Assembly: GCA_963722385.1 (NCBI GenBank)
Contig: CAVRKK010000002.1
Location: forward strand, 160,001 to 224,000
DNA: 64,000 bases
DNA from: an uncultured bacterium
GTDB lineage: Bacteria; Babelota; Babeliae; Babelales; Babelaceae
Direction: 5' to 3'
Shown: in pieces, positions 5,960 through 53,754 of the stretch
Position numbering within the stretch: position 1 is the first letter of the stretch
Layout of the letters: each line of letters opens with the position of its first letter
Program-made: the position numbers and the translations under genes
Notes under the pieces: generated by a model
What the model was told of the DNA's origin: nothing
Seen by the model: only the letters and a program-made list of their open reading frames with translations
The model's database searches: none

Positions 5960-5983
5960 CACGCGCAAAACGTTAAATAAGCA

Positions 5984-6020
5984 AAAACGCCTGCCGTATT
6001 AATTAAGCGGCAGGCGTTTT
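5984..6020 (+). terminator. Intrinsic terminator-like hairpin after the AAA gene
   Basis: AAAACGCCTGCCG / CGGCAGGCGTTTT inverted repeat. Confidence 0.7.
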
Positions 6021-6066
6021 GTTGCTCCCGAGGCCTCTTCGTTCTTTTGCTGCCCCTTGATTTTGC

Positions 6067-6094
6067 TTGTCTATTATTAAATTTCAGATATAAT
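6067..6094 (+). promoter_or_regulatory. sigma70-like promoter upstream of the transglutaminase-VWA gene
   Basis: TTGTCT-N16-TATAAT. Confidence 0.5.
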
Positions 6095-6150
6095 AGTTTA
6101 TGTATATTATTTTATTGAGCTCCTTATTGAAGATGTAATGAAAGAGTTCC

Positions 6151-9489: not shown

Positions 9490-9493
9490 TCTC

Positions 9494-11740: not shown

Positions 11741-11753
11741 AATTTTAGTTTCT

Positions 11754-13537
11754 ATGTCACGCTACCTTGGAAAAGTGCTTTTTATATTCGCTCTTATTTT
11801 CATAAGCTTTAGCGCACGAGCAGAGAGCGTTAATGCAAATAAAGCAACCGATCTTTTAATCGCTTATTTCGATACACTGATTGCTAAAAATATTATGAAT
11901 GCGGACCATCTCAAAAATATTGGTGAGCATCACGACTTAATCAACCCTCTGACTGAAACCGATGCGGCTCAGTCAAGTACTCATCATGTTTACGCTAAAC
12001 AGCTTGACCACATTATTAACCACCTGAAATGCAATGATGTACTTGACCACAAGACATTTAAAGCCTGGGTGGTTTCGAAAATCGAGGAACTCGAAACCCA
12101 CCTATCAACGCGCGAATTAATCCACGAGGAGACTATTAATACCCACTATCCCTTACGCTTTGTTGCTCTTCCTGCAGGCACGTATACCAGCCAACTCGAT
12201 CACAAAGAGTTTATCATAAGCGATGGCATCGAAATTCAAGACAGCCCTGTCACTCAATATCAATGGGCAAGCATTATGGGCAAGAATCATGCCCATTTTT
12301 CTCAGGGCAAAGATTCCTATCAAATAGCACTGAACAGCGAGAGCGTCAAGATACAAGCTGACTACCCCATTGAGTCTGTTTCTTATGCGCAAATACGCGA
12401 ATTTATCAACAAACTCAATGAACAAGACCCTCAATACCTCTATGATTTACTCTCAATTCAGGAATATGAAGCATTCTTACAAGCAAGCTTTGGCAGTGCT
12501 TGGGCTGAATACTTAATCAAAGTCGATAAGAACGAACAGCAACCTCATGCTGTGACCGCGCAATTTTATGAGATGAGTGGCCAACGAGTGCGCGACCTTC
12601 TCGGCAATATCTGGCAATTTACGCAAGACAAAGTACACCTCGGTAACAATATTAATGCATGCGTTGTTTTCGGCTCTTCATACGCGACCAAAAAAGATGC
12701 TTTAGGAACATTGAGAGATATACTGAGGCCGATTATCTATGAAGATAGCATTGGCAAAGACGTTGGATTCAGGCTTATTCGGTATAAAAAAGGTACATCA
12801 CAATGAATAGCAAGAATATATTCAAAAGATGAATTGAACTGGGATAGGCAAGCAGTTGAACAAGATGCAAGTTGGCAGTGGCATCACGACTTCGGCTTCG
12901 CGGGCCTTTGCTTTTACGACGAAGCTTTGCATTTTATGCTGGACAGGAAAAGGTATTATAAACCAGATGTACAACAAACACTCGATTGCTTATATTACAA
13001 GAGTAGACAATTTCGATGCGATAAAACTCATTGCTTCACCGCACTTTCTCTTTACGATAAATACATAACAAACCTCGAGCCACTGGCCTATCTTCAAGAT
13101 CTTTGGTTCCTCGACCTTGAAAGCAATCGTGGCATACGCGATATTCGCCCCTTGAAAAACCTCACGAAGCTTCGCGAACTGTTTCTTGCCTACTCATATG
13201 ATATTGACGACATCAGACCGCTTGCTACTCTTATTAAGCTTGAAAAGCTATCGCTTCAACATAATAAAATAAGCAATATTGAACCGCTTGGTCATTTAAC
13301 AAATCTTAAAGAACTTGATCTTGCTCATAATCAGATCAGCAGTATTGAAAGCCTAGCTTCGCTGAAAGCTTTAAAAATTCTGAAGCTTTCCAGAACCCGC
13401 TCCAAGATATAATGCCCTTAGCCCACCTCACTAATCTTGAAGAGCTCAAGCTTGATCCTGATCAAATAAATCGATTTGACGCCAGATCATTTATCAAAAA
13501 CGTAAACCCTCATATTAAGCTCGTTGAGAGTTGGTGA
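11754..13537 (+). pseudogene. FGE-sulfatase + LRR paralog (copy 2), disrupted
   Basis: ORFs 11721-12806 and 12834-13412 share a frame, separated by TGA 12804-12806; a frameshift near 13390 leads to the family C-terminus (NPLQDIMPL..LDPDQINRFDARSFIKNVNPHI) ending at 13537. Confidence 0.8.
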
Positions 13538-13554
13538 TAAGAATTGCCCGAAGC

Positions 13555-14256
13555 TCAAGCTTTTGCCGATGCTAAAAGCTTAATCTCGAGCGTCGTCACT
13601 TTAGGTAGCACCTTGTTCGTCACAGCAATGCCTTTGGAGCCAAATGATGTATCAAAGCTTCCATCAGAATTAAAACGTGCAATAGCAAGAAAATCGTTGC
13701 TAGAACCGGCGATTAAGATTTTGTCATCATGCTGAATAATGACATCATCAGCTAAGCACCACTCATGGTGAGCAGCAAATTTGCCAACCACCATACCGGG
13801 AATTTCGCCATTTTTGAATGATTTATCCGCGGTGCCATCAGCATTATAACGAGCGATTACAAAATAGCGGCTTTTGTAGTTATCGGCTTTTTTAAATGCA
13901 TAACCAACTACAATAATTTTCCCATCTTTTTGCGTAACTTTTTGGCGCACGCGAGGAAGGGTATAACCTGATTCAAAAGCATCAGGCACAACGAAGCCGA
14001 AGTCACTAAATGATCGCGTAATAGGAATAAGGGTATTCCAATGTATAACCGCAAAGGCTTGAGGGCGTGATGTTAAAATTTTCCCATCTTTACCAATTAG
14101 TATTGAACAGGTAAAATTGCTGGTTGCCGAAGCAGAAGCATCTTTCAATGCCAAGCTCGAATCAAGCGCGCTGCCAAAGTTAGAGATAGCAAAATATAAA
14201 AGCACCATTATTAAAGCATAGATGTTAAAATTGTGTTGATCATAATATTGATTCAT
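13555..14256 (-). CDS. Delta-60 repeat (beta-propeller) protein, probably truncated
   Basis: QKDGKIIVVG..FVIARYNADGTADKSF and QHDDKILIAG..AIARFNSDGSFDTSFG repeats; hydrophobic N-terminal segment. Confidence 0.7.
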   Translation of the reverse strand: MNQYYDQHNFNIYALIMVLLYFAISNFGSALDSSLALKDASASATSNFTCSILIGKDGKILTSRPQAFAVIHWNTLIPITRSFSDFGFVVPDAFESGYTLPRVRQKVTQKDGKIIVVGYAFKKADNYKSRYFVIARYNADGTADKSFKNGEIPGMVVGKFAAHHEWCLADDVIIQHDDKILIAGSSNDFLAIARFNSDGSFDTSFGSKGIAVTNKVLPKVTTLEIKLLASAKA

Positions 14257-14411
14257 AATATTCCCTTGCTGGAGTCGACGATGCTAACCAGTTTATACAC
14301 TCAAAGATTTTAATCAACAAGCGGCAAAGGCGTGCCCTGCGACCTCCTCGATCTGAAATTATTCGCTATTTCGAATATTTAATTGCTTTGCCATTATTGC
14401 TTATATTTCCG

Positions 14412-14439
14412 TTGGCAAATTTTCAATTTTTGCTATAAT
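14412..14439 (+). promoter_or_regulatory. Duplicated promoter upstream of FGE-LRR copy 3
   Basis: GTTGGCAAATTTT(c/a)AATTTT(t/a)GCTATAATAAGAATA matches 4370-4405. Confidence 0.6.
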
Positions 14440-14535
14440 AAGAATATATCTTTTACTGTATTAGATTTAAGGCTGGCTCAGCTTAGGAGAGGCCGAGTAC
14501 TGCACCTCGTTTTACCATCCTGATGCAGAGGAGGC

Positions 14536-16503
14536 ATGAGAGATATGCTATCTAGAATCAACGCTTTAAAAGCAATACTTGCGTTATTTATATTGCCAAC
14601 CCTTCTATTAGCACAAGAGCAACCGGACCAAGCTACGAGCCTATTGGTCGCCTATTTCGACAATCTTGTTTCACAAAATATCATCGCCGTAGATCATCTC
14701 AAGCATATCCACGAACATGAAGAATTAACCAACCCCCTCACTGAAGCTGACGCTCTTACCTCAAGCACTCATTACGTTTACTGGAAGCAGCTTGAACAAC
14801 TTATTAACCAGCTCAAGAGCCATCATTGCATTGATAAAAAGAGCATTAAATTATGGGCGGAACACAAAATTGCAGAAGTCGAGAACCAAGCTGCAACCCA
14901 AGAACTGGTACGCGAAAAAACAGCCAATATTTACCAGCCCCTACGCTTTGTTGGCCTTCCTGAAGGCATGTATACGAGCCAGCTTGACCAAGCTGAATTC
15001 GTCATCGAGTCTGGTGTGGAAATACAAGAAACACCTGTCACTCAACACCAATGGGCAACTATTATGAGCGATAACCCCGCGTATTTTTTCTATGGCTTTG
15101 ACTCAGAAGAAATAGAGATCCATGGTAAAAAAATTAAGCTGGTCGCTCATAATCCAGTAGAATCTGTTTCTTATAGTCAAGTACGCCAATTTATCAATAA
15201 GCTTAACGAGCAAGATACTGAGTATACGTATGATTTACCATCGATACAGGAATATGAAGCCTTGCTTCAGATAAGCCTTGGCAACGATTGGCTACATTAC
15301 CTACCAGCATTTACAAGTACGGAGCATACGCAACCGGTAATTGCAAAAGCTTGCGCGCTTGATAACCACCACCGATTAGGAAGTCTTGTTGGCAATGTTT
15401 GGCAATTTACCCGAGATATGGCAAACCTGAGCCATGATACTGAGAGACACCTTGTTTTTGGAGGCTCTTATGCAACGGTACTAGACTCCATAAAAGACAT
15501 AAATAGCTTACTGAGGCCATTATTTTGGAACAGCATAAGCACCGGCGTTGGATTTAGGCTTGCCCGCTATAAAAAGAGCGCGGAGGCAAAAGAAGCAAAA
15601 ACCTACCATGATATCAAATGGGATAAGCAGATTGCTCACCAGGACCCAAGCTGGTATTGGCATACCAACGATATCTTTGAAGGCCCTCTCTGTTATGCTG
15701 AAATGGCATCGTTCATGCTTATTAACAAGCAACATTATCCTGAAGCAACACAACGTACGCTTAATGCTCTCGAGGAAAATGTCGATAATTTTTATAGCGA
15801 AATTCAGGAGCTCCCCGAGATTTTTCTCAGCAAAAAGCAAATAGATGACCTTACGCCCTTGAGAGGGTTGGTTGCTCTTGAAAGACTCTTCCTTGATACC
15901 AACCAAATAAACGATATAAGTGCCCTTAGCAAATTGATTAACCTCAAGGGCCTCGATCTTTCAAGCAATCAAATAGAAAATACCAAGCCGATCGGAAATT
16001 TACCAAGTTTGCAATGGGTCAACCTCGCTCATAATCGTATTCGTCATATTAAAGCCCTTTCTGGGCTGATCAACCTGAAAAAACTCAATCTTTCTCAGAA
16101 TTATATTTCTGATATTAGTTTTCTTGAGAAATTGCCTAATTTGTCACAGCTTTATCTTAATATAAATGCTTTGAAAGATTTGACGCCACTTAAAAATCTA
16201 ACCAACCTAAACGTGCTTTATCTTACTAACAATGATATCGATGATATTAGCCCGCTTAGAAATTTAATTAATCTTAAGGGTCTCGCTCTTTTTGATAATC
16301 AGATTCAGGATATTACTCCTTTAGAAAATATGAAAAATTTGGAGTGGCTTCATTTAAACGGCAATCCCATAGATGATATAGCACCACTTACAGAACTTAC
16401 TAACCTTCGACACATTTATCTTGATAAAAAGCAAATCAAAAAATTTAATGCTCATCATTTTTTTAGAAATATTAACCCAGATATCGACGTGCATGAAGTG
16501 TAG
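14536..16503 (+). CDS. Signal peptide + FGE-sulfatase-like + LRR protein (copy 3)
   Basis: Same motifs as copy 1 with fewer LRRs. Confidence 0.85.
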   Translation: MRDMLSRINALKAILALFILPTLLLAQEQPDQATSLLVAYFDNLVSQNIIAVDHLKHIHEHEELTNPLTEADALTSSTHYVYWKQLEQLINQLKSHHCIDKKSIKLWAEHKIAEVENQAATQELVREKTANIYQPLRFVGLPEGMYTSQLDQAEFVIESGVEIQETPVTQHQWATIMSDNPAYFFYGFDSEEIEIHGKKIKLVAHNPVESVSYSQVRQFINKLNEQDTEYTYDLPSIQEYEALLQISLGNDWLHYLPAFTSTEHTQPVIAKACALDNHHRLGSLVGNVWQFTRDMANLSHDTERHLVFGGSYATVLDSIKDINSLLRPLFWNSISTGVGFRLARYKKSAEAKEAKTYHDIKWDKQIAHQDPSWYWHTNDIFEGPLCYAEMASFMLINKQHYPEATQRTLNALEENVDNFYSEIQELPEIFLSKKQIDDLTPLRGLVALERLFLDTNQINDISALSKLINLKGLDLSSNQIENTKPIGNLPSLQWVNLAHNRIRHIKALSGLINLKKLNLSQNYISDISFLEKLPNLSQLYLNINALKDLTPLKNLTNLNVLYLTNNDIDDISPLRNLINLKGLALFDNQIQDITPLENMKNLEWLHLNGNPIDDIAPLTELTNLRHIYLDKKQIKKFNAHHFFRNINPDIDVHEV

Positions 16504-16509
16504 GACGTT

Positions 16510-18756
16510 ATGAATCACCTATCTATTACTGCTAATATCCACCTATTTTTTCACCAGTTTCTAAGAGTAGTGCTCGTTATATTTCTATTTCCGAGCTTTG
16601 CCGTAGGTATACAACGAGAGTCCAATACCACAAACCTCTTGATCGCTTATTTTGATAACCTTGTTTCAAAAAATATCATCGTCGTAGATCATCTCAAGCA
16701 TATCTACGAACATGAAGAATTAGTCAACCCCCTCACGGAAGCTGAGGCTCTTACCTCAAGCACCCATTACGTTTACTGGAAGCAGCTTGAGCAACTGATT
16801 AACCAACTGAAGCGCCATGGCTACCTTGAAAGCAACAGCATTAAAATATGGGCGGAACATAAAATTACGGAGCTCGAAAACCGGGGCTCCCTCAGTGAAC
16901 ATATACATGAAAAGACAGCCAATATTTATTATCCCTTGAGTTTTGCCGCTCTTCCCGAAGGGACCTATAGAAGCCAACTTGATCAAAAAGAATTTGTTAT
17001 TGAACTTGGTGTTGAGATTCAAGAAACGCCGGTGACCCAATATCAATGGGCGAGCGTTATGGGTAACAACCTCGCGCATTTTTCAGATGGGTCGGAATCG
17101 CAAGAAATAGTCATCAAAGGCAATAAAATTAAGATGCGCGCTAACTGGCCAGTGGAATCTATTTCTTATGCTCAGGTGCGCGAATTTATAAATAAGCTTA
17201 ATGAGCATGATGCAGACTATATTTACGATTTACCCTCTCTTCAGGAATATGAAGCATTATTACAAGCAGCCTTGGGTCAAGACTGGCCAAGCCGATTACT
17301 TCAACATACTCCCGCAGAAAATATCCATGACGTAAAATTGGGGCCCTACGGGGAACTTCACCAGCAACGCATTTGGAATATTTTTGGCAACGTTTGGCAA
17401 TTTACCAGAGATAGAGTAATGCTCAATGAAAATACCCAAGGGTTTCTTGTTTTTGGTGGCTCGTATACCACCAAGAGAGATACTGCTTCATTTCATAACG
17501 AATTGATAAGACCGGTCCTGAATGGAGAATATAGCGTAGGTAACACACTGGGATTTAGACTTGTTCGCTACAAAAGGGATACGTCAGAAAAAGAAGCAAA
17601 GGTATATGATGGTATTGTCTGGCACAAACACGCTGATCATCATCAAAACTGGCAATGGCATCGTAATGACGTTTTTGAAGGACCTTTATTTTACAATGAT
17701 ATAATCGAGTTCATACGTGAAAATAGGCAGTATTATTCTGACGCTATTCAGCATACGGTCGATTCTTTATACATTTCTAGCAAACCAAGCTACGTATTTT
17801 TGATATCTCTCCAAAACAAAAAGATACAAAATTTGACGCCTTTAAGTTGTTTTATCAAGCTTAAAGGCCTTGAGCTTGGTCGCAATCAAATACGAGATGT
17901 AAGTCCCCTTAGCACACTCACGAGCCTTAAGGAGCTTAATCTTTCAAATAATGAAATAGAAAATGTTAATCCCATCGGACGTTTATCAAATTTGCAAAAA
18001 CTCTTTCTCAAAGCTAATAAAATTAGAAATATCGGAGCTCTTACGGACCTTAGGCATATTGAGCGCTTGGATCTTACTGACAATGAAATAGAAGATATTC
18101 AAGGCATTGAAAAGTTAACGAATTTACGAGAACTAGTTATTCAGGAGAATAAGCTTAATAACATTGAGCCTTTAAGTAGCTTAATCCATCTTAAATATCT
18201 ATATCTTGATGACAATCAAATTACCACTATTGAACCTCTTGAAAATCTCGCAAGCCTAGAATGGCTTAGCCTTGGGCATAATCCAATTCGCTCTATTAAG
18301 GCGCTTCCATCTTTAAAACTTAGGATGCTCGATCTTCATAATACCTTTCTTAAGGAAATTAATTTTCTTAAAAAATTAACTAATCTTACGAATCTTAACC
18401 TTAATAACAATATGATAGCAGATGTAAAGCCACTCAAAAACCTTACTATGCTTGATAAACCTTCTCTTGGTCGCAACAAAATAAAAGATATTACCCCCCT
18501 TAAAAATTTAACTAATCTTCGGACTCTTTACCTTTCTCATAATCAAATTCGCGATGTTACTGCCTTAGAAAATCTGAAACACCTGGTCGAGCTTTCTTTA
18601 GACGGCAATCCTTTGGAAGATATAACACCACTTAAACAGCTTGCTAATCTTGAAGATATTTATCTTGATAAAGACCAAATCGAAAAATTTAATGCTCATG
18701 AGTTTTTCAAGAATAGCAATCCCGCTCTTGTGGTGCATGAGGTAGAGGAGATATAA
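16510..18756 (+). CDS. Signal peptide + FGE-sulfatase-like + LRR protein (copy 4)
   Basis: Same motifs as copy 1. Confidence 0.85.
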   Translation: MNHLSITANIHLFFHQFLRVVLVIFLFPSFAVGIQRESNTTNLLIAYFDNLVSKNIIVVDHLKHIYEHEELVNPLTEAEALTSSTHYVYWKQLEQLINQLKRHGYLESNSIKIWAEHKITELENRGSLSEHIHEKTANIYYPLSFAALPEGTYRSQLDQKEFVIELGVEIQETPVTQYQWASVMGNNLAHFSDGSESQEIVIKGNKIKMRANWPVESISYAQVREFINKLNEHDADYIYDLPSLQEYEALLQAALGQDWPSRLLQHTPAENIHDVKLGPYGELHQQRIWNIFGNVWQFTRDRVMLNENTQGFLVFGGSYTTKRDTASFHNELIRPVLNGEYSVGNTLGFRLVRYKRDTSEKEAKVYDGIVWHKHADHHQNWQWHRNDVFEGPLFYNDIIEFIRENRQYYSDAIQHTVDSLYISSKPSYVFLISLQNKKIQNLTPLSCFIKLKGLELGRNQIRDVSPLSTLTSLKELNLSNNEIENVNPIGRLSNLQKLFLKANKIRNIGALTDLRHIERLDLTDNEIEDIQGIEKLTNLRELVIQENKLNNIEPLSSLIHLKYLYLDDNQITTIEPLENLASLEWLSLGHNPIRSIKALPSLKLRMLDLHNTFLKEINFLKKLTNLTNLNLNNNMIADVKPLKNLTMLDKPSLGRNKIKDITPLKNLTNLRTLYLSHNQIRDVTALENLKHLVELSLDGNPLEDITPLKQLANLEDIYLDKDQIEKFNAHEFFKNSNPALVVHEVEEI

Positions 18757-36023: not shown

Positions 36024-37232
36024 TTAATTAACTAATTTAGTCCGTTCTTCCAAAGTATTTTTGAAAAAGTGCTTTTTGAGTAAAAAGATACCGATTCCAG
36101 CGACAACAGCTAAAATGACGGCTCCTGCGCCGCCGCCAACACTCATTCCTATGATACAACCGGTACCGCAGCCGTCACCAGAATTAGCATCTGATTTTAA
36201 AGATGCTATGGTTATACTACCTGGGCCAACGAAAAGCCCGTTTACTGAAGCAAGGTAGGCGCCATTAGGTGAAAATGCTAGTGCTTCGGATGTGGTATCG
36301 TGCGTATCGAAGACATAAGAAATTGCCTTGCTTAAGCCTTCATCAGTCACGGTAAATAGAGTCACATCATTTGAATACGCGTTAGCGGTTGCAAGGCAGC
36401 TACCCGTTGGTGAAAATGCTACTACCAGAGGCTTGTCAGAACCTGATGGTAAAACATAAGAAGTTCCTTGAGTGAGTATTCCATCGATTAACCTAAACAG
36501 GGTTACATCACTTGAGCCATAATTAGCAGTAGCACAATATAAGCCGCTCGGTGAGAATGCCACTGACTGTGGCGAGCTCGAAGTAACAGGCAAAGGATAC
36601 GAAGTGCCGTTGCCGAGGATCTCTTCAGCTTCTACCTTAAAAGCGGTCACGTCGTTTGAAGCTTGATTAGCCGTAGCAAGATACGAGCTATCAGGAGAAA
36701 ACGCTACTGAATAGGGACCAGCAGAACCAGAAGGTAATGGATATGAAGTACCGTTGCTCAAGGTGCCTCCTGTTTCTACCTTAAATAGTGTCACGTCGTT
36801 TGAAACTTGATTAGCCGTAGCAAGGTACTTGCCATTTGGTGAAAATGCTACTGAGTAGGCTTCTGAAGAACCCGGCAAGAAGTAGTTCCTTGCGTTTGGG
36901 TCTAATGTCCCATCCGGATTTACCGTAGATATGGCCACACCACCGGAACACGTAGCAAGATATAAGCCATTTGGTGAAAAGTCTATTGACTGGTCGCTAT
37001 CACGTGGATAGGTAGTCCCTGCGTTTAAAATTCCCTTAGTAAGCGTAAACATGGTCACACTTCCAGCATTAGCGGTAGCCAGATAAAGTCCATTTGGTGA
37101 AAATACCATTGCTGCAGGGCTTATAACATTATCATGTAGAGAATTGGTCTATGAAGATGAGACTGAACAGGTCTGGGACACCACATTGCTTGCAAAAGAA
37201 AGTGTTAGAATTAAGAAAAATAGTTCTTTCAT
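36024..37232 (-). pseudogene. 7-repeat beta-propeller type I membrane protein with an in-frame stop after the signal peptide
   Basis: AGGAG RBS + MKELFFLILTLSFASNVVSQTCSVSSS*TNSL.. (TAG 37149-37151) is in frame with ORF 36024-37109; FSPxGxYLATAN repeats; C-terminal TM. Confidence 0.75.
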
Positions 37233-38045: not shown

Positions 38046-39119
38046 ATGCACAATGGTATACATCGAGTGCTCATATTTTTATCATGCAGCGGCTTTGCAA
38101 TGGCTGCCGGAGCAGAACCAGCTGAGAACTTATTCATCGGACTTAAAGACGTTATTGATGCTGGAAAGGTATATGCTGAGGATACCGATCGCATGACCGA
38201 CAAGCTAGCACTGTATGCATGCGCGGATCAATACGTCGATGCCCTGACGTTTCAGCCTACGAATAAGGAAAAAATCTCTGAGTATCACGCTTGTTTAAGA
38301 ACAGTCAGCGAAAGCGAGTATGCAGAGACAAACAAGCAGTTTGTGGGATTTGAACCTTATTTGATTCAATATGAAGACGAAGAAGAATATAATAAGCGAT
38401 GGGCAATCACCAAATTGCTGAGCAAAACAACGGTGAAACTTCCCCACCCTTTGGCACTTCTTAAAAAAGCCGCAGAAGACCTCGGAAAATTCGCTTTTGT
38501 CAACGCGGTCGATGAACAGAAAAACTATAAGCCTCGTGACCGGTTTGTTGTTACCATAAAAGATGCGATGTTACTCGTTCTTGATCGCCAAAAATACGGC
38601 AAGCAAACTTTCGAAACCAAGCTCAAAGAAAAACTGGCTATTTTAGCTGACCTCTGCGCAAAAAATACGGTCTTCCAAAAAGATGAACTCGCCGATAAAA
38701 AAGATGAGCAACTTGAAAGTGAGTACTCATCTGAAACTCTGATCGACCTAGGCCAAAAAATTGGCTCGATCTTAGCAAGCGCTGGCGGCCAGCATGTTCT
38801 TCCTTATGAAGAGAGAATTAAATTGGGCGTTGAGGTAGCTCAAGTGCTGTTTCCCGTCTATAGCTCAATATTAAGGGCCAATGCTGAAGGCAAAGATTTA
38901 AAATTGGGCATGAGTGAGCTCGTAAAACTTGGCGATGAGGAAATTCAATCTTTCGAAAAAAATAAAGGCTCGTTGGAAGGCGATTTCGACGCCAAATTTT
39001 ACGCTATATCGATGATCTTATTTCAGCTCAATAAACTACAAGAAAGCAAATCAACCAAATCGGTAAAAAAGGCCGAGTTCAAAGAAAAAAATCCGCTTGA
39101 AAACGCTTTTGTGCTCTAA
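38046..39119 (+). CDS. Hypothetical exported helical protein, paralog of 39153-40499
   Basis: AAGGAG RBS, signal peptide; PHPLALL..AEDLGK and NPLENAF are shared with the next gene. Confidence 0.75.
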   Translation: MHNGIHRVLIFLSCSGFAMAAGAEPAENLFIGLKDVIDAGKVYAEDTDRMTDKLALYACADQYVDALTFQPTNKEKISEYHACLRTVSESEYAETNKQFVGFEPYLIQYEDEEEYNKRWAITKLLSKTTVKLPHPLALLKKAAEDLGKFAFVNAVDEQKNYKPRDRFVVTIKDAMLLVLDRQKYGKQTFETKLKEKLAILADLCAKNTVFQKDELADKKDEQLESEYSSETLIDLGQKIGSILASAGGQHVLPYEERIKLGVEVAQVLFPVYSSILRANAEGKDLKLGMSELVKLGDEEIQSFEKNKGSLEGDFDAKFYAISMILFQLNKLQESKSTKSVKKAEFKEKNPLENAFVL

Positions 39120-39152: not shown

Positions 39153-40499
39153 ATGAAAAATTGCAATCAACTTATTTTTAGCATCGGTTTGTTGTGCTTT
39201 GCTGCGGCAAGCTTTGGCCAATCAGATGTGGTAATGAGGCAGGATATCCTTGCTCATGATTCGAAATATATCGTAGGAGACGAAGAGACTGAAATTACGA
39301 AAGAGTACATAACTGCGCTGGCCCTTGATGGAATGCGCCGTCTTTTCGAATCTGGCCTTGAATTTCTTAGCAGAGATGCAAAATCAACCATGAGCGAAAT
39401 TGAAAGAAAAGAAGAGGCGGTCGAATGCGCCTTTAAGCATGCTCTCATCTCAAGCGAGAATGACTATTGGAGTGATCATTACATAGCATGCGTAAAGGCT
39501 ACCGGTCAACTCGGCGGCAACATACGTAAAGACTGCGCTGGTAACGGAATTTGCATGAGCCGTTCGAGCCCGACTTTTAAAAATAATAAATTCTATAAAC
39601 CATGTGGATGGCGTGATTTTTCGCTTACGGGATTAGCTTATGACGATTGGTATTATCCTGGGCCTCTTGCAGTCATCTACTGGGCAATGGGAAATGTCGG
39701 GAAAGTTGCTATTGACCTGTCTAAAGATCCAAATACAGAACAAAAATTTCTTGACGATATCAATGCCATTCTTGAAATTATTGAAGCACGTAACCGTATG
39801 GGGCGCAAGGCCTATATTGCTGAGATGGACCAACGCTTCCGTTCTGTCCAGAGCATGATCGATGCCCACGCAAAATCTAAGGTCAATCAACAAGCCGGAA
39901 TTCTTAATCTGATGAATCTTCGTTTAACCGAAGAAGGGGCAAGTAAGTTAGGTCAAGTTGCTTTTGAAGAAGTTAATCGCGCTTATGCATCAAAGCCTAT
40001 CAGCGCTGAAAACGCAAAGGCGCTCGCTCTTTTTGTTTTGAGCAATCCCATAATATCCGAGTTGTTACAAAAGCAAAATGGAGAAGACCTCCAGGATTCT
40101 CTCGATGAAATAATTGAGGCTTATAATCTCATTTTCAACAAATACGTAGAACAAGGTGCTTCGAGCAAGGCTTCAGTGCGCATGTCAGAAAAAATGAAGG
40201 TAGCAACCAAAACGTTGGGGGCATACTACCTTAATGATATGCATGGCTTTTCCAAACAGGAAGTTGAGGCTGATCCGTTGAAAAATGCTTTTAAGATCGG
40301 TCGCATCCTCGGCAAAAATGCGCGCACCGCAGAATATGATACAGAAGAACGATCAGCTGCTCGTCTTACAGAACAAGGCAATCGCATCAATGAGTATCAA
40401 AAATTAAGCGAGCAACAACAGCGGCTTTCGCTCGGCGATGGTGCAACACTGGCCCCTAAGCTCAACGAGAGCAAAAATACGATTAAAGACGAACTTTAA
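39153..40499 (+). CDS. Hypothetical exported protein ending in KDEL
   Basis: MKNCNQLIFSIGLLCFAAASFG signal; AAA GAC GAA CTT TAA. Confidence 0.8.
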   Translation: MKNCNQLIFSIGLLCFAAASFGQSDVVMRQDILAHDSKYIVGDEETEITKEYITALALDGMRRLFESGLEFLSRDAKSTMSEIERKEEAVECAFKHALISSENDYWSDHYIACVKATGQLGGNIRKDCAGNGICMSRSSPTFKNNKFYKPCGWRDFSLTGLAYDDWYYPGPLAVIYWAMGNVGKVAIDLSKDPNTEQKFLDDINAILEIIEARNRMGRKAYIAEMDQRFRSVQSMIDAHAKSKVNQQAGILNLMNLRLTEEGASKLGQVAFEEVNRAYASKPISAENAKALALFVLSNPIISELLQKQNGEDLQDSLDEIIEAYNLIFNKYVEQGASSKASVRMSEKMKVATKTLGAYYLNDMHGFSKQEVEADPLKNAFKIGRILGKNARTAEYDTEERSAARLTEQGNRINEYQKLSEQQQRLSLGDGATLAPKLNESKNTIKDEL

Positions 40500-42115: not shown

Positions 42116-44386
42116 GTGTTCAATTTTTGTTTTGTTATTGTGGTATTAGTTTTTTTGGTAGGGTCATCTCAAACAGAGAGTATACCTATATGTACCGTAT
42201 CCAGTAGTACCAATACTCCATTGCCAAATGGTTCGGGCCCTACTGGGATTACCTTTTCACCCAATGGACTCTATCTTGCTGTTGGTAATACTGTCGCGAC
42301 AGCTGTTACTATGTTCACGGTAGGAATAGATGGTATCATTGACAGTGGCATTTCATACCCTATGCCGGCAGGATCTTCTTTTCCTCAGGTTTTAGCTTTT
42401 TCGCCTGATAGTCATTATCTTGCTACAACTAATAACAGCTCCAATAATATTACTATCTTTACGGTTACGAGCGGAGGTGTGTTAACTAATGGTACCTCTT
42501 ATGCATTACCTTCTGGTGCGCAATTAGCTGGTGCACCAGTCTTCTCTCCTGATGGGCAATACCTTGCAGTGACTGCTGAAAATTCCAATCAGGTAGTCAT
42601 ATTTACGGTAGGATCAGGAGGCGTTTTAAGCAATGGCACTGTCTATGCTATGCCTAATGGTGCTTCACCAGACATACCCGCTTTTTCCCCTGATGGATCA
42701 TACCTCGCAATCGGTGACGACGCTAATAATGCAGTAACTATGTTTAAGGTAGGAAATGGAGGCATTCTCAGTAACGGTGTTACGTACGCCCTACCCTCAG
42801 GATCTACGTCTCCAAGCTCAATCGCTTATTCTCCTGATGGTAGCTATCTTGCTACTTCTAATTTTAGCTCAAATGACGTAACTGTTTTTACGGTAGAGCC
42901 TGGAGGAGTATTGAGTACTGGTATTTCTTATCCGCTGCCTTCTAACTCTTACGATCCAAATTCTATAGCTTTTTCCCCCAATGGTTTATATCTGGTAACT
43001 GCTAACTCATTTAGCAATAATGCAACGCTTTTTAGTGTAGGAGATAATGGTGTTCTTTCTCAGGCAGTTTCTTATAGCTCTGGAGCTCAACAGCTTGATT
43101 ATCTAGCTTTTTCTCCCCGAGGGCTTTATTTTGCAACATCTAATTATGGTTCAACCAGCGTAACGATTTTTACTTTATCTTGTTCAAGTGCTGCTACTTC
43201 ATACCCTTTACCTCCCGATTCTCTCGATCCAGATGCTGTGGTAATTTCAAAAAATGGCTTGTACCTTGCAACAGCAAATTATAATGCAAACAATGTGGCT
43301 TTTTTTAACCTAGAATCTACGGGTATACTTAACAATGGAACGACTTGTTCTTTGCCATCTGGCTCGCTTTGTCCTTCTGGTGCTGCGTTTTCAGCTGATA
43401 CAGCCTACCTTGCAACTTCTAACAGTCAATCCAATGATATTACTCTTTTTAAAATTATGGATGGTCAGTTAATTGCTGGTACTTCTTATCCGCTGCCTTC
43501 TGGGTCTATCAATCCGGTATCGCTTAATTTTTCCCCTCATGATGCCTATCTTGCTGTTGCCAATAACAACTCAAGTGATGTAACTATGTTTAATGTTGAA
43601 GCGGGTAAACTTGTGGATGCTCTTTCTTATCCTTTGCCTCTACCATCTAAAAATCCGACAGGAGTAGCTTTTTCCGCTGATAGCTCTTACCTTGCTACAG
43701 CTAATGCTGGCTCAAATGATATAACGCTTTTTAGCGTGATAAACGGAACTTTAAAAACGTTACTTTCAAAAAATATACCCGCCCAATCCTCTAACCCACG
43801 TTCGCTTGTCTTTGTGCCTGATGCTCAGAGCGAATTTTTCATAGCTACCGCTAATAGCGATTCAAGCGATATAACAATCTTTCCTTTCCAGGAAGGCGTA
43901 CTGGGTAATGGTACTTCTTATACCTTGCCTGCAGGTGATCTTAATCCTCTCTTTATCGCTGCTTCGTCCGATGGTGTTTATCTCGTTAGCGCCAATAGTG
44001 GATCTAATAGCATTACTATTTTCATTGTTACTGATGTTGCCTTAAGCCAAGGTGTTTCTTATAACTTGCCTGCTCAATCAAGTTATGATGTAGCAGTCGC
44101 GTTTTCTCCTGTTCTATCAAATAGTGGATCTATGGTAGCAGCCACCGCTAATAGTTTATCCAATGATGTGTCTATTTTTCCTCTTCTTGGATCAGGAACA
44201 GGAGATGGAGGCAGCAGCCTACCGCTCGGGCTCATTATCGGAACGACTGTTGGCATTCCTCTGGGTATCGGGGCTGTGGCACTCGTAGGCTTCCTTGGCG
44301 CCTTTTTGTTCTATAAGTATCGGCAATGTCAACGTGGAGGAGGAAACGTTAGCTTTAGTGGAGAAGAGTCTACTGATACGCTTTAG
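42116..44386 (+). CDS. 14-repeat (double) beta-propeller type I membrane protein
   Basis: AAGGAG RBS, GTG start, signal peptide, 14 FSPxGxYLAxxN-type repeats, Gly linker + TM + basic stop-transfer. Confidence 0.8.
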   Translation: MFNFCFVIVVLVFLVGSSQTESIPICTVSSSTNTPLPNGSGPTGITFSPNGLYLAVGNTVATAVTMFTVGIDGIIDSGISYPMPAGSSFPQVLAFSPDSHYLATTNNSSNNITIFTVTSGGVLTNGTSYALPSGAQLAGAPVFSPDGQYLAVTAENSNQVVIFTVGSGGVLSNGTVYAMPNGASPDIPAFSPDGSYLAIGDDANNAVTMFKVGNGGILSNGVTYALPSGSTSPSSIAYSPDGSYLATSNFSSNDVTVFTVEPGGVLSTGISYPLPSNSYDPNSIAFSPNGLYLVTANSFSNNATLFSVGDNGVLSQAVSYSSGAQQLDYLAFSPRGLYFATSNYGSTSVTIFTLSCSSAATSYPLPPDSLDPDAVVISKNGLYLATANYNANNVAFFNLESTGILNNGTTCSLPSGSLCPSGAAFSADTAYLATSNSQSNDITLFKIMDGQLIAGTSYPLPSGSINPVSLNFSPHDAYLAVANNNSSDVTMFNVEAGKLVDALSYPLPLPSKNPTGVAFSADSSYLATANAGSNDITLFSVINGTLKTLLSKNIPAQSSNPRSLVFVPDAQSEFFIATANSDSSDITIFPFQEGVLGNGTSYTLPAGDLNPLFIAASSDGVYLVSANSGSNSITIFIVTDVALSQGVSYNLPAQSSYDVAVAFSPVLSNSGSMVAATANSLSNDVSIFPLLGSGTGDGGSSLPLGLIIGTTVGIPLGIGAVALVGFLGAFLFYKYRQCQRGGGNVSFSGEESTDTL

Positions 44387-47892: not shown

Positions 47893-50800
47893 TTAGCGCT
47901 CTGAGTGATAAAGCAGGAATGCGCTTGTTGGCGTTAGCACAGCGTCCGCAGGCACCATCGTGGTACCTCCCAAGGCACGAAGCTTGGTAGGGTCAGGATT
48001 CAGCAACCGTTTGTTTACCGAATCATAAACAGGGCCAGGAATACCAACTGACTTATCTCCTAAGAGTAGTGACAGCTCAGGATAATTGAGCGCGCCACCT
48101 GTAGGAATACCGTGCACATCATAAAAAACACCACTACGTAAATCAACATAAGCCGGTTGCTCGGTGCCGACCGTTGTACCGGGATAATATATCTTATTGG
48201 TGTCTTCAGAGCCGTATTTATAGAGGTAGCGCTTTTGATCAGAATCGTACACGAACTGCTTGCTCGTTATAAGCCCTTGTGCGTGTTCTCGAGCGCTTGC
48301 TGGCACATTTAAGATAGCAGCAACAGGACCGAGCGCGGTCATCAAAAGTGGCTTGAAGATACCAACGTCACCAAACGCCGTTATGCTTATATAGTTCTTG
48401 AGCTTATACTGAATATCGCGAATTGTTTTGCCACTTGTTGATTGGTAAGCAGGAATAAAGAAGTGAATACCGTTGGTATCTTCAAAAGCGACATAATTGG
48501 CGCCGGTGTTGGCATCAACAAGCCCATCATAGAAAGTAACTTGGTAGTCGGACGTGGTGCCATCAGGCAACTTGACTGCCTGCATCGTAAGCTTGGATCC
48601 GCCTTTTGCTGCTCCTTGGCATTCAATATACGCACCAAGTGGTATCTTTGCTGATGAAAGTCGGCTATCTCCCGTTGCGGCCGGAACGAAGAGCCGCTCC
48701 ACAGTAAACGCATCACCTTTCTTAGTGCCAGCAACCACGAGCAGGTTACCCGCATAGTTAGCATCCCACGTCGCTCGGGCAAATTCAAATACGGGACTTG
48801 AGCCAGGCTTTCTCGAACCAATATAACTGTAAGGCTTGATATATTCAGCGCTTGATTTATAAGTGGCTCCTTTTGGATCAAAAGCAATGACACCACTTTG
48901 TTGCTTCTGGCCTGCCTTAACAACCCACGGCTTGGCCAGGTCAAGGTCTGCGGGATCTATGGCAAGGTATTTGTCAGCATCACCAAGGGCGTTAAAGCCT
49001 TTATAAATTAAGTTTGGGTTCTTATTCGAGGTAAAGTCCATATAGTACGTATACTGGTAATAGTAGCCTCCAATATCGGTACCGAAAGCCTGTGGCATAC
49101 CGCGATTATCATTGCCAATGAACGCAGCAAGCCGGTGATTGGAATCTTCAAGTGCCTGGTACTCAGCAATGCGAGCATGCCCATTGGTATCGAACTCTGA
49201 TCCTGAATACAGATCTATATAGAAAGAGCTGCCTTGAGATGGTTTGGCGAGCGCCATAACGCGTGCACCAGGAATACGTGCATTAGTATATTGCTTAAGC
49301 GTATAGGTTGTATCGCCGAGCGTAATGGTGGGTATACTACTTGGGTAATCCTGCATCACCCCTTTTTTGTCGCCAAGTTCAATCCCTGGCATCGTATGTG
49401 GCACGCCTAAGACTTGCGAACCATCAGCATTCACCACGACGCCTGCTTTTTGGCGCGCAATATCAAGAAGTGCCCCGCTATAGATAGTGGCAGGCAAGCC
49501 TTTACCGTTATAAAGGATACCTACTTCCTGCTCTTTGCCTTCGGGGCCCTTCATAGGGTGCGCAGCGTAATCGAAAATAGATGCAGGTTGTCCATTAACG
49601 GCGTCATTGGCTGCTCCCGTAACAGCATAATACTTATTTTGATAACGTTTAAGATGCGTAAAAGGTGATGGTAAATAGGCAAGCGAACCAAGAAGCTTGC
49701 TTACCGTCACCTCGTCAAGCTGTATCACCGGTGCTGGCGGCGGCGTTGGCTGCTTCACCGGCGTTTGTCGCGTAATAAGCATGTCGAGGGCTTTTCGCAA
49801 AGCTGGCCGAACTTTGCCCCGAAGTTGCGTTAATAAACTACCAGGCGAAGAAACAACGAGTGAGGGGAAAACGCCCTGCGCATTATAAACGGTACCCGTC
49901 ACGAGGCTAATAATATATGCTGGATTACTCTCAAGGGGAATACCGAGCAATTCAGGAGTGATATTGCCTTTTGCATCCTGGTTGGCACCAATGAAGAAGT
50001 CATCAACCTGGCTCAATTTTGGTGGAAATGCCGAAGTTGGTAAAGTCGTAACGTCTTGATACACATACGTGTTATTCTTGGCATCTTCTGGGTCAATCGT
50101 CAACAAGAAATTAGCAAAGCTATAGTGCTTCCACGGCAATTGCGTTACATTCGTGGCTGCTGTGCCGAGCATACTTCTTAACGATGGACTTTTTAAGCTT
50201 GCCCTAACCGCTCCAAGGTTGCTTAACTGAACCGGTGTGCCATTTTCATCGGCCACGATGGTTACCTGGTCTTGGCTATCACGATGATAGATCGTGCCCG
50301 TTATTAAGCTTATGAGGTAGGGTTGCGGGTTCGTAGCTTCGAATGGCTCGCTCCCCACAACGGTGTTATTGGCCCCAAGAGTTTTGGCGACAATAAAATA
50401 GTCACCCGGATAGCTCGATGATGTGTAGACAAAGTCGCCTGCCCGTATGTCATCAATGCTGGTAGCTTGCAACACGATGTTTGGTATCAATTTTGAGGTA
50501 AAAGCAAAGGGCCCCATGAGCTCAAAAAGGAGCCATTCAGATTGCTTTTGCCCAATAAGCCAGAGCTTCCACATCAGATGGGAACTCTTTATGGCGTTAT
50601 TGAGTGCTGGGGAATTTGTCTCAAGGTACGTGCCGAGCAATGAACCGGTACTGTCGGAGACTGGTCCAAGATTAAGCCCTTGATTATAGAGGTATAACGG
50701 CCCGACGGGTATAAAACCATCAACGGCAAGTGTATGCTGGTAGCTTGTGCTTGGATCTAGCCCAAGATTTTGAGCAAGCCCATCAAAGAGTGGTTGGGCC

Positions 50801-53754
50801 GCTGCGGACAGTTGGTCTTTGAGTGATGTACCAACCCCTGCAAATGCCGTGGCAACAGCTGGGTTAGTGGCGGCGCTCAGTACTCTATCAAGATCAGCTG
50901 GTGATGCTTGGGCAAGTGAGTGCGTTATTACTCCATTTTGGATACCGTCGCTAACTGCTTTCGTTATACGATCAGCCAAGGTTGCACCAACCTTATCGAG
51001 AGCTGTCGGCGAAAGATCCTTGATTATAGTAGGATTCAATCCAATAGTCTGAACGAGAGACCCTACAACGCGCGCCGCTGCGTAAACGGCGAAGCGGCTG
51101 AGCACATTTTTGGCAGAAGAATAGACAGGATCATTCGAGCTTTCAATGGCATGGGCGATAGCTTGCACGAGATCAGGCACCACCTTTAAGCCCTTGGTAT
51201 AATTATAAGGGTTTACGTCATATTCTTCATAGAGGCTACCGAGTGCCGTGCTGAGATCTGAGCTCACAACTTCCATATTAGCCTTGCTTTTGAAAACCGC
51301 AAGCATATTGGCGGTGGCTATATAGGTCTCCCCGGTTGGTGTGTACTCAAGAATGCTAAAATCGATTGGCGTCTTGACGAGCGCCATGTCCTGGTCATAG
51401 ATACGTGAAGTGACGACGCTCACAAAATAGGCAAGCTTGCCACTCGGTAGCCCAACCGGGCTAAAGTACTGATCAACCGGAACCAGGTAGTCAGTTCCAC
51501 CATTTTCTAATGTTGTCTTCTTGTTATTATTCTGTGGTGCACATTCATAGAGGGAGACATTAGAGGCAAGGTCTTTTGGCCTCGTAAGGGTATAGCCGCC
51601 ATACGTAAATGGACCCTTTCCCGTTCTTGTTTCTATAGCGGTCTTTAAATTTTTGAAAAATTGCGATATTGCATCAGATGGCGACTTAAAACTTGCCGCG
51701 GCTTGTGCGAGCAGACTGGGATTTGCCTCAAGCTTGCCCATCGTTATATCGGTAAGAGCGTTATCGATGAGGCCATAAATATATTTCACCCGTGGATTGA
51801 CAGACCATGTCACGGAGCCAGGCTGGACTGCGGATATACCCTTCGTTTTTCCACGCGCCACCACGGACCCACCTAGTTTGATTTCAGCAGTACCGCCGCC
51901 TTCATTGACGCAAGGTATAAAGCCAGGTAGAGGGTTCATATCCCTATCAAGGCACATGACATAATCGTAAAGGTCGCTTGCCACTTTTACGTCAGACGAT
52001 GCCTCTTGCGCTTTAAGACTTTTACGGGCTAAGAGGGCCCATTGCGTATCAGGCGTTTGATAAATGAATATTCCCTGGGCATTGAGCGGCATGTCAAAAA
52101 GACCCTTTGATAGCAATGGTGTCGGTGCTATTTCAAGTACCTTGCTGGGATAAGCCATAGCTTGCAAGGTAAAGCCGCCCGATAGTTTTTCGCCACTTGC
52201 GCGAACCACGGGTGCGCCTAGATTGAAGATTCCTGACATGGCTTCATAGGTTGATGGCTGCTTGCCGGTAGGACCGCCGCCGCCTAGATTTTTGCTAATT
52301 TGGTCCGCAGGAGTTAAAAAGAGATTTGTTTTTTCAGTTTTAGTATCATACAATGTATTTGCTAATGATTGCCAGTATTCAGATTCCTTTTTGCCTCCGC
52401 CGCTTAAAGCTTCAGCAGCAGTTCCGCTTGCGCTGATCATACCGATATTACCGTTTTGATCGTACGTTTCAGAAAATGCTATTCCCGTATATAGCTTACT
52501 TGCCATAAGGCGGAGAAAGCGCAACATATTTGTCGCGCATTTGTGATAGGAATCAGATGCCGTTAGAGGACCTAACTGGCGATAAGGATACAAGATATCG
52601 AATGGATCACCTGCACCTAAAAATTCGAGGCCGGTATTGAGGTGAAGCATTTGGCCGGTAAACGAGTCTGATGGGATACCCCCAACGCCCCATGAAAAGG
52701 GGTAATCGCAATCGTTGTAGGCACCCGCTGTTACAAAAAAGTTTGTATTATCTACGACTTGCTCGCCTGTTTTACCCGTTAATTGGCTCCACTCGGCTTG
52801 CCACGACCCTTCGGTAACCGATTTTAAGTAAGATTCAGCTGCAGCAGGATCTTTAACAAGGGAGTAAATGTAAACACTTTTTGCAATATTGTCTTGATCA
52901 ATAAGAGGCGCTAGTGGCGCTAGCCAGAGGCCGCCAAAATATTGAGGTGCCAGAGCTGTCGTAACCTGGGCATCTTTAGCGAGCTTGGCCTGAATGGGAC
53001 CCATGACCCAGTTAGGAACCATGAAGACAAATGCTGACACAATAGTCAGGAATACATGTTGGACAAGAAAATTCTTGATAGTTTGTCCCCATGTTTCTGG
53101 TGTAGGTGCGGCGCCAGCTTCCTTGGCAGCCTGAGAAAGCTTTTCATCGGCATTATTAACCGCATTAGCTTCACTTTGTGCATTTGGTGATTCATTCTCA
53201 AGATTTTTGTCAGTCAAATTAGATACTTCAGTATCCACTTTGCCAACCATATCTTGTGATGCAGTCTTAAAAGTCTCCACCGTTGCTTCAAGCTCACTGG
53301 TCAATTCGCTGCCAGCCTTGCCAAATGCTTGTAAGTTTACGTCCTTTGCTAGATCTTCAGGAAGCAGCTTTTTTAAATCAGTTCCCAGATCAGAAAGCAG
53401 ATTGCCAACTTTTTCAAATTGCTCAGGAGTCAGCTCCGCGATAGTTTCTGCCCCTCCCATAACGTCTTTTAATCCCTCGCCAAAAGTTTCAAAGACCCCC
53501 TTTGCATCAGTCCCTAATTGCTCTAAAACAGCTGAGTCGATGCCTTTAAAAGAGTCTTCGATAGCAGTATTAGCGAAACTTTTTGTCAGATCAGCCATGG
53601 TATTTCCGCCAATGACCTCCCCTAACGAGCTGCCAACGGCTTCGCCTAGGTCACCTGTGAGAGCTTCCATACTACAGACTCGCTGGAAGCCGGTTCCTAC
53701 AGCAATTACGAGAATGGCAAATCTCATGAAGCGGTATAATTTCAAGGCTTTCAT
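47893..53754 (-). CDS. Giant (1953 aa) exported hypothetical protein with internal repeats
   Basis: Long ORF with GGGGG RBS, signal-like N-terminus, TM near aa 230-250, recurring YxISLxTGxxY motif. Confidence 0.8.
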   Translation of the reverse strand: MKALKLYRFMRFAILVIAVGTGFQRVCSMEALTGDLGEAVGSSLGEVIGGNTMADLTKSFANTAIEDSFKGIDSAVLEQLGTDAKGVFETFGEGLKDVMGGAETIAELTPEQFEKVGNLLSDLGTDLKKLLPEDLAKDVNLQAFGKAGSELTSELEATVETFKTASQDMVGKVDTEVSNLTDKNLENESPNAQSEANAVNNADEKLSQAAKEAGAAPTPETWGQTIKNFLVQHVFLTIVSAFVFMVPNWVMGPIQAKLAKDAQVTTALAPQYFGGLWLAPLAPLIDQDNIAKSVYIYSLVKDPAAAESYLKSVTEGSWQAEWSQLTGKTGEQVVDNTNFFVTAGAYNDCDYPFSWGVGGIPSDSFTGQMLHLNTGLEFLGAGDPFDILYPYRQLGPLTASDSYHKCATNMLRFLRLMASKLYTGIAFSETYDQNGNIGMISASGTAAEALSGGGKKESEYWQSLANTLYDTKTEKTNLFLTPADQISKNLGGGGPTGKQPSTYEAMSGIFNLGAPVVRASGEKLSGGFTLQAMAYPSKVLEIAPTPLLSKGLFDMPLNAQGIFIYQTPDTQWALLARKSLKAQEASSDVKVASDLYDYVMCLDRDMNPLPGFIPCVNEGGGTAEIKLGGSVVARGKTKGISAVQPGSVTWSVNPRVKYIYGLIDNALTDITMGKLEANPSLLAQAAASFKSPSDAISQFFKNLKTAIETRTGKGPFTYGGYTLTRPKDLASNVSLYECAPQNNNKKTTLENGGTDYLVPVDQYFSPVGLPSGKLAYFVSVVTSRIYDQDMALVKTPIDFSILEYTPTGETYIATANMLAVFKSKANMEVVSSDLSTALGSLYEEYDVNPYNYTKGLKVVPDLVQAIAHAIESSNDPVYSSAKNVLSRFAVYAAARVVGSLVQTIGLNPTIIKDLSPTALDKVGATLADRITKAVSDGIQNGVITHSLAQASPADLDRVLSAATNPAVATAFAGVGTSLKDQLSAAAQPLFDGLAQNLGLDPSTSYQHTLAVDGFIPVGPLYLYNQGLNLGPVSDSTGSLLGTYLETNSPALNNAIKSSHLMWKLWLIGQKQSEWLLFELMGPFAFTSKLIPNIVLQATSIDDIRAGDFVYTSSSYPGDYFIVAKTLGANNTVVGSEPFEATNPQPYLISLITGTIYHRDSQDQVTIVADENGTPVQLSNLGAVRASLKSPSLRSMLGTAATNVTQLPWKHYSFANFLLTIDPEDAKNNTYVYQDVTTLPTSAFPPKLSQVDDFFIGANQDAKGNITPELLGIPLESNPAYIISLVTGTVYNAQGVFPSLVVSSPGSLLTQLRGKVRPALRKALDMLITRQTPVKQPTPPPAPVIQLDEVTVSKLLGSLAYLPSPFTHLKRYQNKYYAVTGAANDAVNGQPASIFDYAAHPMKGPEGKEQEVGILYNGKGLPATIYSGALLDIARQKAGVVVNADGSQVLGVPHTMPGIELGDKKGVMQDYPSSIPTITLGDTTYTLKQYTNARIPGARVMALAKPSQGSSFYIDLYSGSEFDTNGHARIAEYQALEDSNHRLAAFIGNDNRGMPQAFGTDIGGYYYQYTYYMDFTSNKNPNLIYKGFNALGDADKYLAIDPADLDLAKPWVVKAGQKQQSGVIAFDPKGATYKSSAEYIKPYSYIGSRKPGSSPVFEFARATWDANYAGNLLVVAGTKKGDAFTVERLFVPAATGDSRLSSAKIPLGAYIECQGAAKGGSKLTMQAVKLPDGTTSDYQVTFYDGLVDANTGANYVAFEDTNGIHFFIPAYQSTSGKTIRDIQYKLKNYISITAFGDVGIFKPLLMTALGPVAAILNVPASAREHAQGLITSKQFVYDSDQKRYLYKYGSEDTNKIYYPGTTVGTEQPAYVDLRSGVFYDVHGIPTGGALNYPELSLLLGDKSVGIPGPVYDSVNKRLLNPDPTKLRALGGTTMVPADAVLTPTSAFLLYHSER

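Follow-up and report, generated by a model that had tools for sequence, protein, structure and literature searches.

This uncultured lineage places a real, selected and lineage-restricted KDEL-class tag on many unrelated proteins that are predicted to be secreted, and we consider it probable, on the strength of sequence comparisons, that the tag mimics the host signal for retrieval to the endoplasmic reticulum (ER). The window, by which we mean the whole 64,000-nucleotide stretch that was analysed (G000:C2:160001-224000), belongs to a genome of 1.6 Mb that is 93% complete (G000). For UvrB, a single gene, the homologs bearing organism names (6 among the 120 matches listed) are all assigned to Babeliaceae, Babeliales, Dependentiae or TM6, at 71-73% identity. 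The protein under study, hereafter the query, is presented in Table 1 with its parts and with related features of the window and of other genomes.

Table 1. Location of the query, its parts and related features (window positions unless a genome or locus is named)
Feature	Location	Strand	Remarks
Query ORF, 448 aa, mostly helical, unnamed family, predicted secreted, C-terminal KDEL	39153..40499	+	
Predicted Sec signal peptide of query, about 22 aa	39153..39218	+	By eye and hydropathy heuristic; inferred cleavage site
Polar tail of query, predicted disordered, residues 426-448, presents the tag	40428..40496	+	pLDDT <50
KDEL codons and TAA stop of query	40485..40499	+	
Tandem distant paralog of query, 357 aa, predicted signal peptide, untagged	38046..39119	+	33 bp upstream of query
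Second KDEL-ending signal-peptide protein, unrelated to query, weakly hydrophobic helices	60473..61795	+	
Beta-propeller family member	42116-44386	+	
Beta-propeller family member	36024-37109	-	
GspC with PDZ domain, beside two secretins	L305 (G000:C2:782169-783335)		
J-domain and thioredoxin-fold set	G000:C2:1066683-1067558; G009 L006:10840-11352; G009 L016:2514-3719		
CaaX-ending proteins, most with signal peptides	G007 L222, L227; G005 L233		Ends CLLS, CLVS, CALS, CVLL, CVIL

The KDEL end of the query is not due to chance. As originally predicted, the reading frame closes on NESKNTIKDEL followed by a TAA stop, and the contig of one sequencing run spans this end with 0 differences, although that run may be the source sample and so not independent. 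The suspicion that a second, unrelated KDEL protein in the window would be unlikely by chance is borne out, with two such ends among 43 ORFs giving P ~3e-7 at the internal background rate. For the wider count, ORFs of at least 100 aa were called de novo, yielding 1,284 in G000 and 621 in the 800 kb sampled from the 1.52-Mb genome of a sister species (G009). In G000, 8 of the 1,284 ORFs end in [KH][DE]EL, where tail shuffles average 0.14 (maximum 2 in 1,000), and 15 end in [KHR]xEL, where they average 1.7 (maximum 7 in 1,000). The sister species presents the same picture, its 621 ORFs including 7 of the first kind and 16 of the second, for expected numbers of 0.09 and 0.83. Shifting the end by 1-10 residues leaves 0 occurrences of [KH][DE]EL; that is to say, the tag is strictly terminal.

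The excess is carried by proteins with predicted signal peptides. The signal flag used here comes from a permissive hydropathy heuristic, under which about half of all ORFs qualify; across G000 and G009, [KHR]xEL terminates 27 of 1,003 flagged ORFs versus 4 of 902 unflagged ones, two of these four resembling signal-peptide proteins by eye. None of 357 flagged ORFs in four relatives ends this way. The genome-wide enrichment anticipated by the original prediction is thereby present and concentrated where it was looked for, on a tagged share that amounts to only ~3% of signal-flagged proteins. Proteins of the cytoplasmic class are not enriched (2 versus 0.76 expected), and housekeeping-like carriers, such as RDEL on C2:849289-850410 and KDEL on an AAA protein of G009, occur in about the number due to chance. 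BLAST clustering of a 17-protein set from G000, defined by the wider [KHRQ]xEL with the cytoplasmic class left out, returns 17 separate families.

Neutral bias in composition or translation termination is the least probable reading of these counts. It can appeal to a general enrichment of lysine near C-termini, to L as the commonest last residue and to EL as the commonest ORF end in G000 (34 ORFs), yet shuffles preserving both tail composition and the real last residue reach maxima of only 8 versus 15 observed in G000 and 7 versus 16 in G009, and the cytoplasmic class remains unenriched. The codons of the tag are varied and all three stop codons occur after it, which indicates selection on the peptide, so that the neutral account is largely refuted. 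The commonest four-residue end in G000 is VNQI (seven ORFs on C2), which marks copies of one transposase-like gene and is not a tag.

Position preferences within the tag were examined for the 39 signal-flagged, non-propeller proteins ending in EL. Position -4 is K in 16, H in 7 and R in 4, making 27 of 39 with a basic residue there versus 121 of 796 others, while position -3 is occupied by 12 different residues and never by Pro. The tails of tagged proteins also exceed those of untagged ones in polarity. The code of the KDEL receptor, as given in the accessible part of its description, accepts K, H, R and a few others at -4, anything except Pro at -3, E at -2 and L at -1, and human ER proteins carry KEEL, HEEL, HDEL, KTEL, KVEL, KEDL, REDL and RTEL (PMC2140024). 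On sequence, then, the preferences in this lineage match KDEL-receptor specificity. A search for the KDEL-receptor family itself returned no match in any genome nor in the control, and is a weak test. Other host-read signals behave differently in G000 and G009: PTS1 and CaaX ends are not enriched. Neither are glycosylation sequons, nor dileucine motifs in type I tails (1 versus 1.8), and KKxx shows a slight excess in G000 (17 versus 10.2).

Inspection of secretion genes suggests how tagged proteins could reach such a receptor. G000 encodes two secretins adjoining GspC, and GspC matches are found in 38 of 41 family genomes. Searches for the VirB4 (type IV) and FlhA/SctV (type III) families found none in G000, at 93% completeness, or in G009. 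A FlhA/SctV family match does occur in one Babeliaceae genome (G010:C11:179248-181099, L302-L304), with none in four others searched. ATP/ADP translocases are present in G000, indicating intracellular life. As far as the accessible text of the published accounts goes, no secretion system other than type II is reported for Babelota (PMC4378268), the relatives in culture parasitise protists and have many signal-peptide proteins (PMC4378268, PMC6561590, PMC4776705), and in Chromulinavorax such proteins make up 44% of genes (PMC6561590). We think it likely, from sequence features, that the host KDEL receptor retains Sec/type II-secreted tagged proteins in an ER-connected compartment. Most tagged proteins would leave the bacterium through Sec and type II secretion, their destination would be an ER-connected compartment of a eukaryotic, presumably protist, host, and the host receptor would hold them in the lumen by returning any that reach the Golgi.

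A bacterial reader, which the original prediction did not consider, has a PDZ-bearing candidate in G000, where one of three PDZ matches lies within the GspC beside the secretins. PDZ domains bind extreme C-termini with a hydrophobic last residue, so that GspC or a periplasmic PDZ protease might read the tag as a label for secretion or turnover, its likeness to KDEL being convergent; the tails of the beta-propeller family, described below, also end in L. We regard this account as unlikely. GspC is a family-wide protein, and alignment of its PDZ region across 8 genomes, tagged and untagged, reveals no lineage-specific change; a label for secretion would moreover sit on merely ~3% of the signal-flagged proteins; and K/H/R at -4, E at -2 and the EDL variant suit the KDEL receptor better than the usual PDZ classes as we know them.

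Retention by the host receptor is also to be weighed against passage through the ER. Type II secretion exports cholera toxin, heat-labile toxin and exotoxin A. These toxins exploit KDEL retrieval (PMC6471375, accessible part), and a similar path from vacuole to Golgi to ER and, by ERAD, to the cytosol would offer a cytosolic effector route to a bacterium equipped with type II secretion only, in keeping with the type III and IV markers not found in G000 or G009 and with ankyrin repeats in one tagged G009 protein. Lysine content makes this rather improbable. Toxins that use ERAD are extremely biased toward Arg over Lys (PMC6471375, accessible part), and the tagged proteins are lysine-rich (median 7.9% in 27 versus 6.3% in 716 other signal-flagged proteins, P 0.001), with 33 K and 22 R in the query. 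Toxin-like passage is for this reason less favoured than ER retention. The original prediction had allowed for effectors either routed to or kept in the host ER; it is the second half that the data favour.

A Pfam scan of 42 EL-ending proteins returned no match for 30 and no toxin domain in any, which further argues against toxin-like delivery; the remaining matches include thioredoxin, TPR, J-domain, ankyrin and M15 peptidase. Domains of the ER-chaperone type among these, namely a thioredoxin with KEEL, a TPR protein with RTEL and J-domains ending NEL or EEL, could be taken as traces of genes acquired from eukaryotic ER proteins and retaining a vestigial tag. Such an origin is very improbable. 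The 30 of 42 without a match, the bacterial type of the others (e.g. the M15 D-Ala-D-Ala dipeptidase) and the homolog searches with the query, in which no named eukaryotic homolog was found, all speak against it, and a vestigial tag would not be expected to outlast divergence to 30% identity. The J-domain proteins themselves combine a signal peptide and an intact HPD motif with ends NEL/EEL, and the thioredoxin-fold protein has CxxC and the end KEEL. Judged by these sequences, the set could engage host BiP or PDI pathways.

The query is modelled as a helical bundle without a recognisable catalytic site. Its AlphaFold model, built from 14 sequences, is mostly helical with a low-confidence tail (pLDDT 70.5, pTM 0.60). 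Most homologs align with N-termini that resemble the query signal peptide, and beyond that peptide the query has no further hydrophobic segment (top 19-residue hydropathy 1.2). No match was obtained with Pfam or with the family profile against PDB sequences, no usable match in the Atlas search, and nothing at E <=0.001 with Foldseek against PDB and viral models; a wide structural search with the whole chain found generic helical bundles only (best Z 7.8 over 76 residues). A toxin enzyme domain is thus seen neither by Pfam, nor by PDB sequence, nor by fold, although absence from lists is a weak exclusion. The Cys-rich N-terminal half originally noted is partly sustained: five mature cysteines cluster there (2.5%), but the mature chain as a whole has 1.18% cysteine versus a median of 1.02% for signal-peptide proteins, so that the feature was overstated and adds little, and broad conservation is limited to C92 and C113. 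The query would most likely act as a luminal binding or scaffold effector.

Comparison with the tandem paralog isolates the region that bears the tag. The two proteins are 21% identical over 230 aa (E 2e-4; family HMM E 2.3e-8), and the paralog ends NPLENAFVL without a polar tail, just as first described. This end aligns to query residue 380, so that both the conserved helix (397-425) and the disordered tail (426-448) are missing from the paralog. The pair is probably co-transcribed and recurs in G009, and the untagged paralog is possibly a partner of the query, to go by the gene arrangement and sequences.

Conservation was assessed on an alignment of 13 non-self homologs, two near-identical query fragments and two cluster members having been excluded; one sequence (P0010) that ends ahead of the conserved C-terminal region was dropped, leaving 12 complete homologs. 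The motif class persists in 9 of these 12, down to ~30% identity, as KDEL, KEEL (2), KKEL (2), KEDL, KQEL, REDL and KVEL on tails that cannot be aligned and that place the end 33-68 aa beyond the last conserved motif. Conservation of the motif, singled out by the original prediction as informative, is therefore uneven: all 7 homologs of a distant clade are tagged, but 3 of the 5 close homologs (53-63% identical) are not, among them the G009 orthologue, in which reading through the stop yields no EL. The tag is accordingly dispensable in some lineages. A comparable balance emerges from reciprocal best hits between G000 and G009, where 2 of 4 pairs of non-cytoplasmic tagged soluble proteins keep the tag (~30% identity) and 2 of 4 do not; the second KDEL protein of the window has a reciprocal best match in G009 that likewise ends in KDEL (32% over 128 aa). 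The query family is present in 2 of 261 phylum genomes, and metagenome and viral scans located no loci for the distant homologs P0007, P0008 and P0010-P0015. Two database fragments, P0009 and P0004, are 99-100% identical to the query, which suggests that another assembly contains a frameshifted copy; the contigs examined over this region contain no indel.

The tag is pronounced in one genus and less so in a neighbouring one, and it was not detected elsewhere. A DNA pattern for the tag, applied to 261 phylum genomes, gives 21 matches in G000, 21 in G009 and no more than 14 in any other; the pattern is noisy and would miss a genome with few tags. In G000, 11 of the 21 lie at ORF ends. Among 15 other higher-scoring genomes, 13 of 140 inspected matches end frames of at least 70 codons, comprising 5 of 8 in G010, 2 of 8 in G008 and 6 of 124 in the remainder. 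G008 and G010 represent the nearest other genera by GspC similarity. G010 holds 3 tag ends versus 0.18 in 366 kb, in stretches chosen partly by known matches, and G008 holds 0 in 400 kb. In 200-kb samples of G005, G007, G012 and G028, 0 of 628 ORFs end in [KH]xEL. A phylum-wide trait was considered and rejected, since the pattern matches inspected outside G000 and G009 rarely end long frames. Two relatives without the KDEL tag instead have CaaX ends, at 3 versus 0.1 in G007 and 2 versus 0.2 in G005 (200 kb each).

G000 and G009 are rich in a beta-propeller family, with 48 copies in G000 and 35 in 800 kb of G009; among the other relatives sampled it is all but missing, G008 having 2 copies and five more genomes 0. 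The layout is eukaryote-like, consisting of a signal peptide, propellers and one of two end types. In the first, a single membrane helix is followed by a short conserved tail made up of SVN[YF], acidic residues and a final L; in the second, a Ser/Thr stalk leads to a hydrophobic end that looks like a GPI signal. One subfamily has a dileucine-like motif at its end. Ends that follow a transmembrane helix are EL, DL or TL, and since such a tail would face a cytoplasm, the KDEL receptor would be unable to read it, a point that weighs against explaining all these ends by KDEL retrieval. A broader picture, which we put forward tentatively and hold to be rather doubtful, is that the lineage may inhabit the lumen of the host ER, or a space continuous with that lumen, and maintain an ER-resident proteome of its own. 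KDEL-held effectors would be joined by J-domain and thioredoxin proteins within the BiP/PDI network and by the 48-copy propellers, handled through their type I tails or GPI-like ends by host membrane machinery, while relatives acting in the cytosol would use CaaX. Were this so, the C-terminal tags encoded in a genome would suffice to predict where inside its host an uncultured symbiont lives. Accounts of cultured relatives, in their accessible text, describe vacuole or mitochondrial association and leave the ER unmentioned. In Symbiomonas, what had been reported as an endosymbiont of the ER appears to be a virus (PMC11008856, accessible part).

Effectors of amoeba-infecting bacteria, e.g. Legionella, use CaaX prenylation mimicry. 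Likewise, the tag considered here would be a host-read C-terminal signal on many unrelated effectors, and CaaX ends also occur in G007 and G005; the difference is that CaaX acts in the host cytosol and a KDEL tag only within the secretory lumen. The likeness to the eukaryotic KDEL/HDEL signal, read by ERD2/KDEL receptors, extends to the signal peptide, the extreme C-terminal tetrapeptide and the same variants including KEDL and REDL (PMC2140024, accessible part), but here the genes are bacterial and entry to the lumen is proposed to occur by bacterial secretion and not by host Sec61. Cholera toxin A, E. coli heat-labile toxin and Pseudomonas exotoxin A are equally bacterial, secreted and equipped with a C-terminal KDEL-class motif. 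In the accessible text, these toxins are single, lysine-poor and enzymatic and cross the ER to the cytosol (PMC6471375), which contrasts with at least 15 unrelated lysine-rich tagged proteins per genome in which no toxin fold was found. Brucella, whose replicative vacuoles are continuous with the ER lumen, provides a precedent for an ER-connected niche, although that niche is built by type IV secretion and the accessible text makes no mention of proteome-wide KDEL tagging (PMC13022623). We found no report of such tagging in the literature searched; the main text of four Babelota papers does not contain 'KDEL', and supplements and subscription papers (e.g. the Vermiphilus description) may differ. 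Bacterial use of KDEL has so far meant a few toxins crossing the ER, so that tagging 1-3% of the proteome for ER retention would, if true, be a different strategy, and would suggest that this uncultured lineage, from a phylum about which little is understood, has its niche in the ER lumen. With type II as the sole reported secretion system, the finding also bears on where the numerous signal-peptide proteins of Babelota act.

Other genes of the window present features of their own. Clustered at positions 9476-18756 are paralogous signal-peptide proteins that carry leucine-rich repeats towards the C-terminus; one of these proteins is apparently split (11721-12806 and 12834-13412). Positions 4469-9489 encode what we take to be a MoxR-like AAA ATPase and, after it, a large protein whose motifs look transglutaminase-like and von Willebrand A-like; both have signal-peptide-like starts. 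On the minus strand, 47893-53754 encodes a signal-peptide protein of 1,953 aa whose N-terminal region is acidic and which has a hydrophobic segment near its centre.
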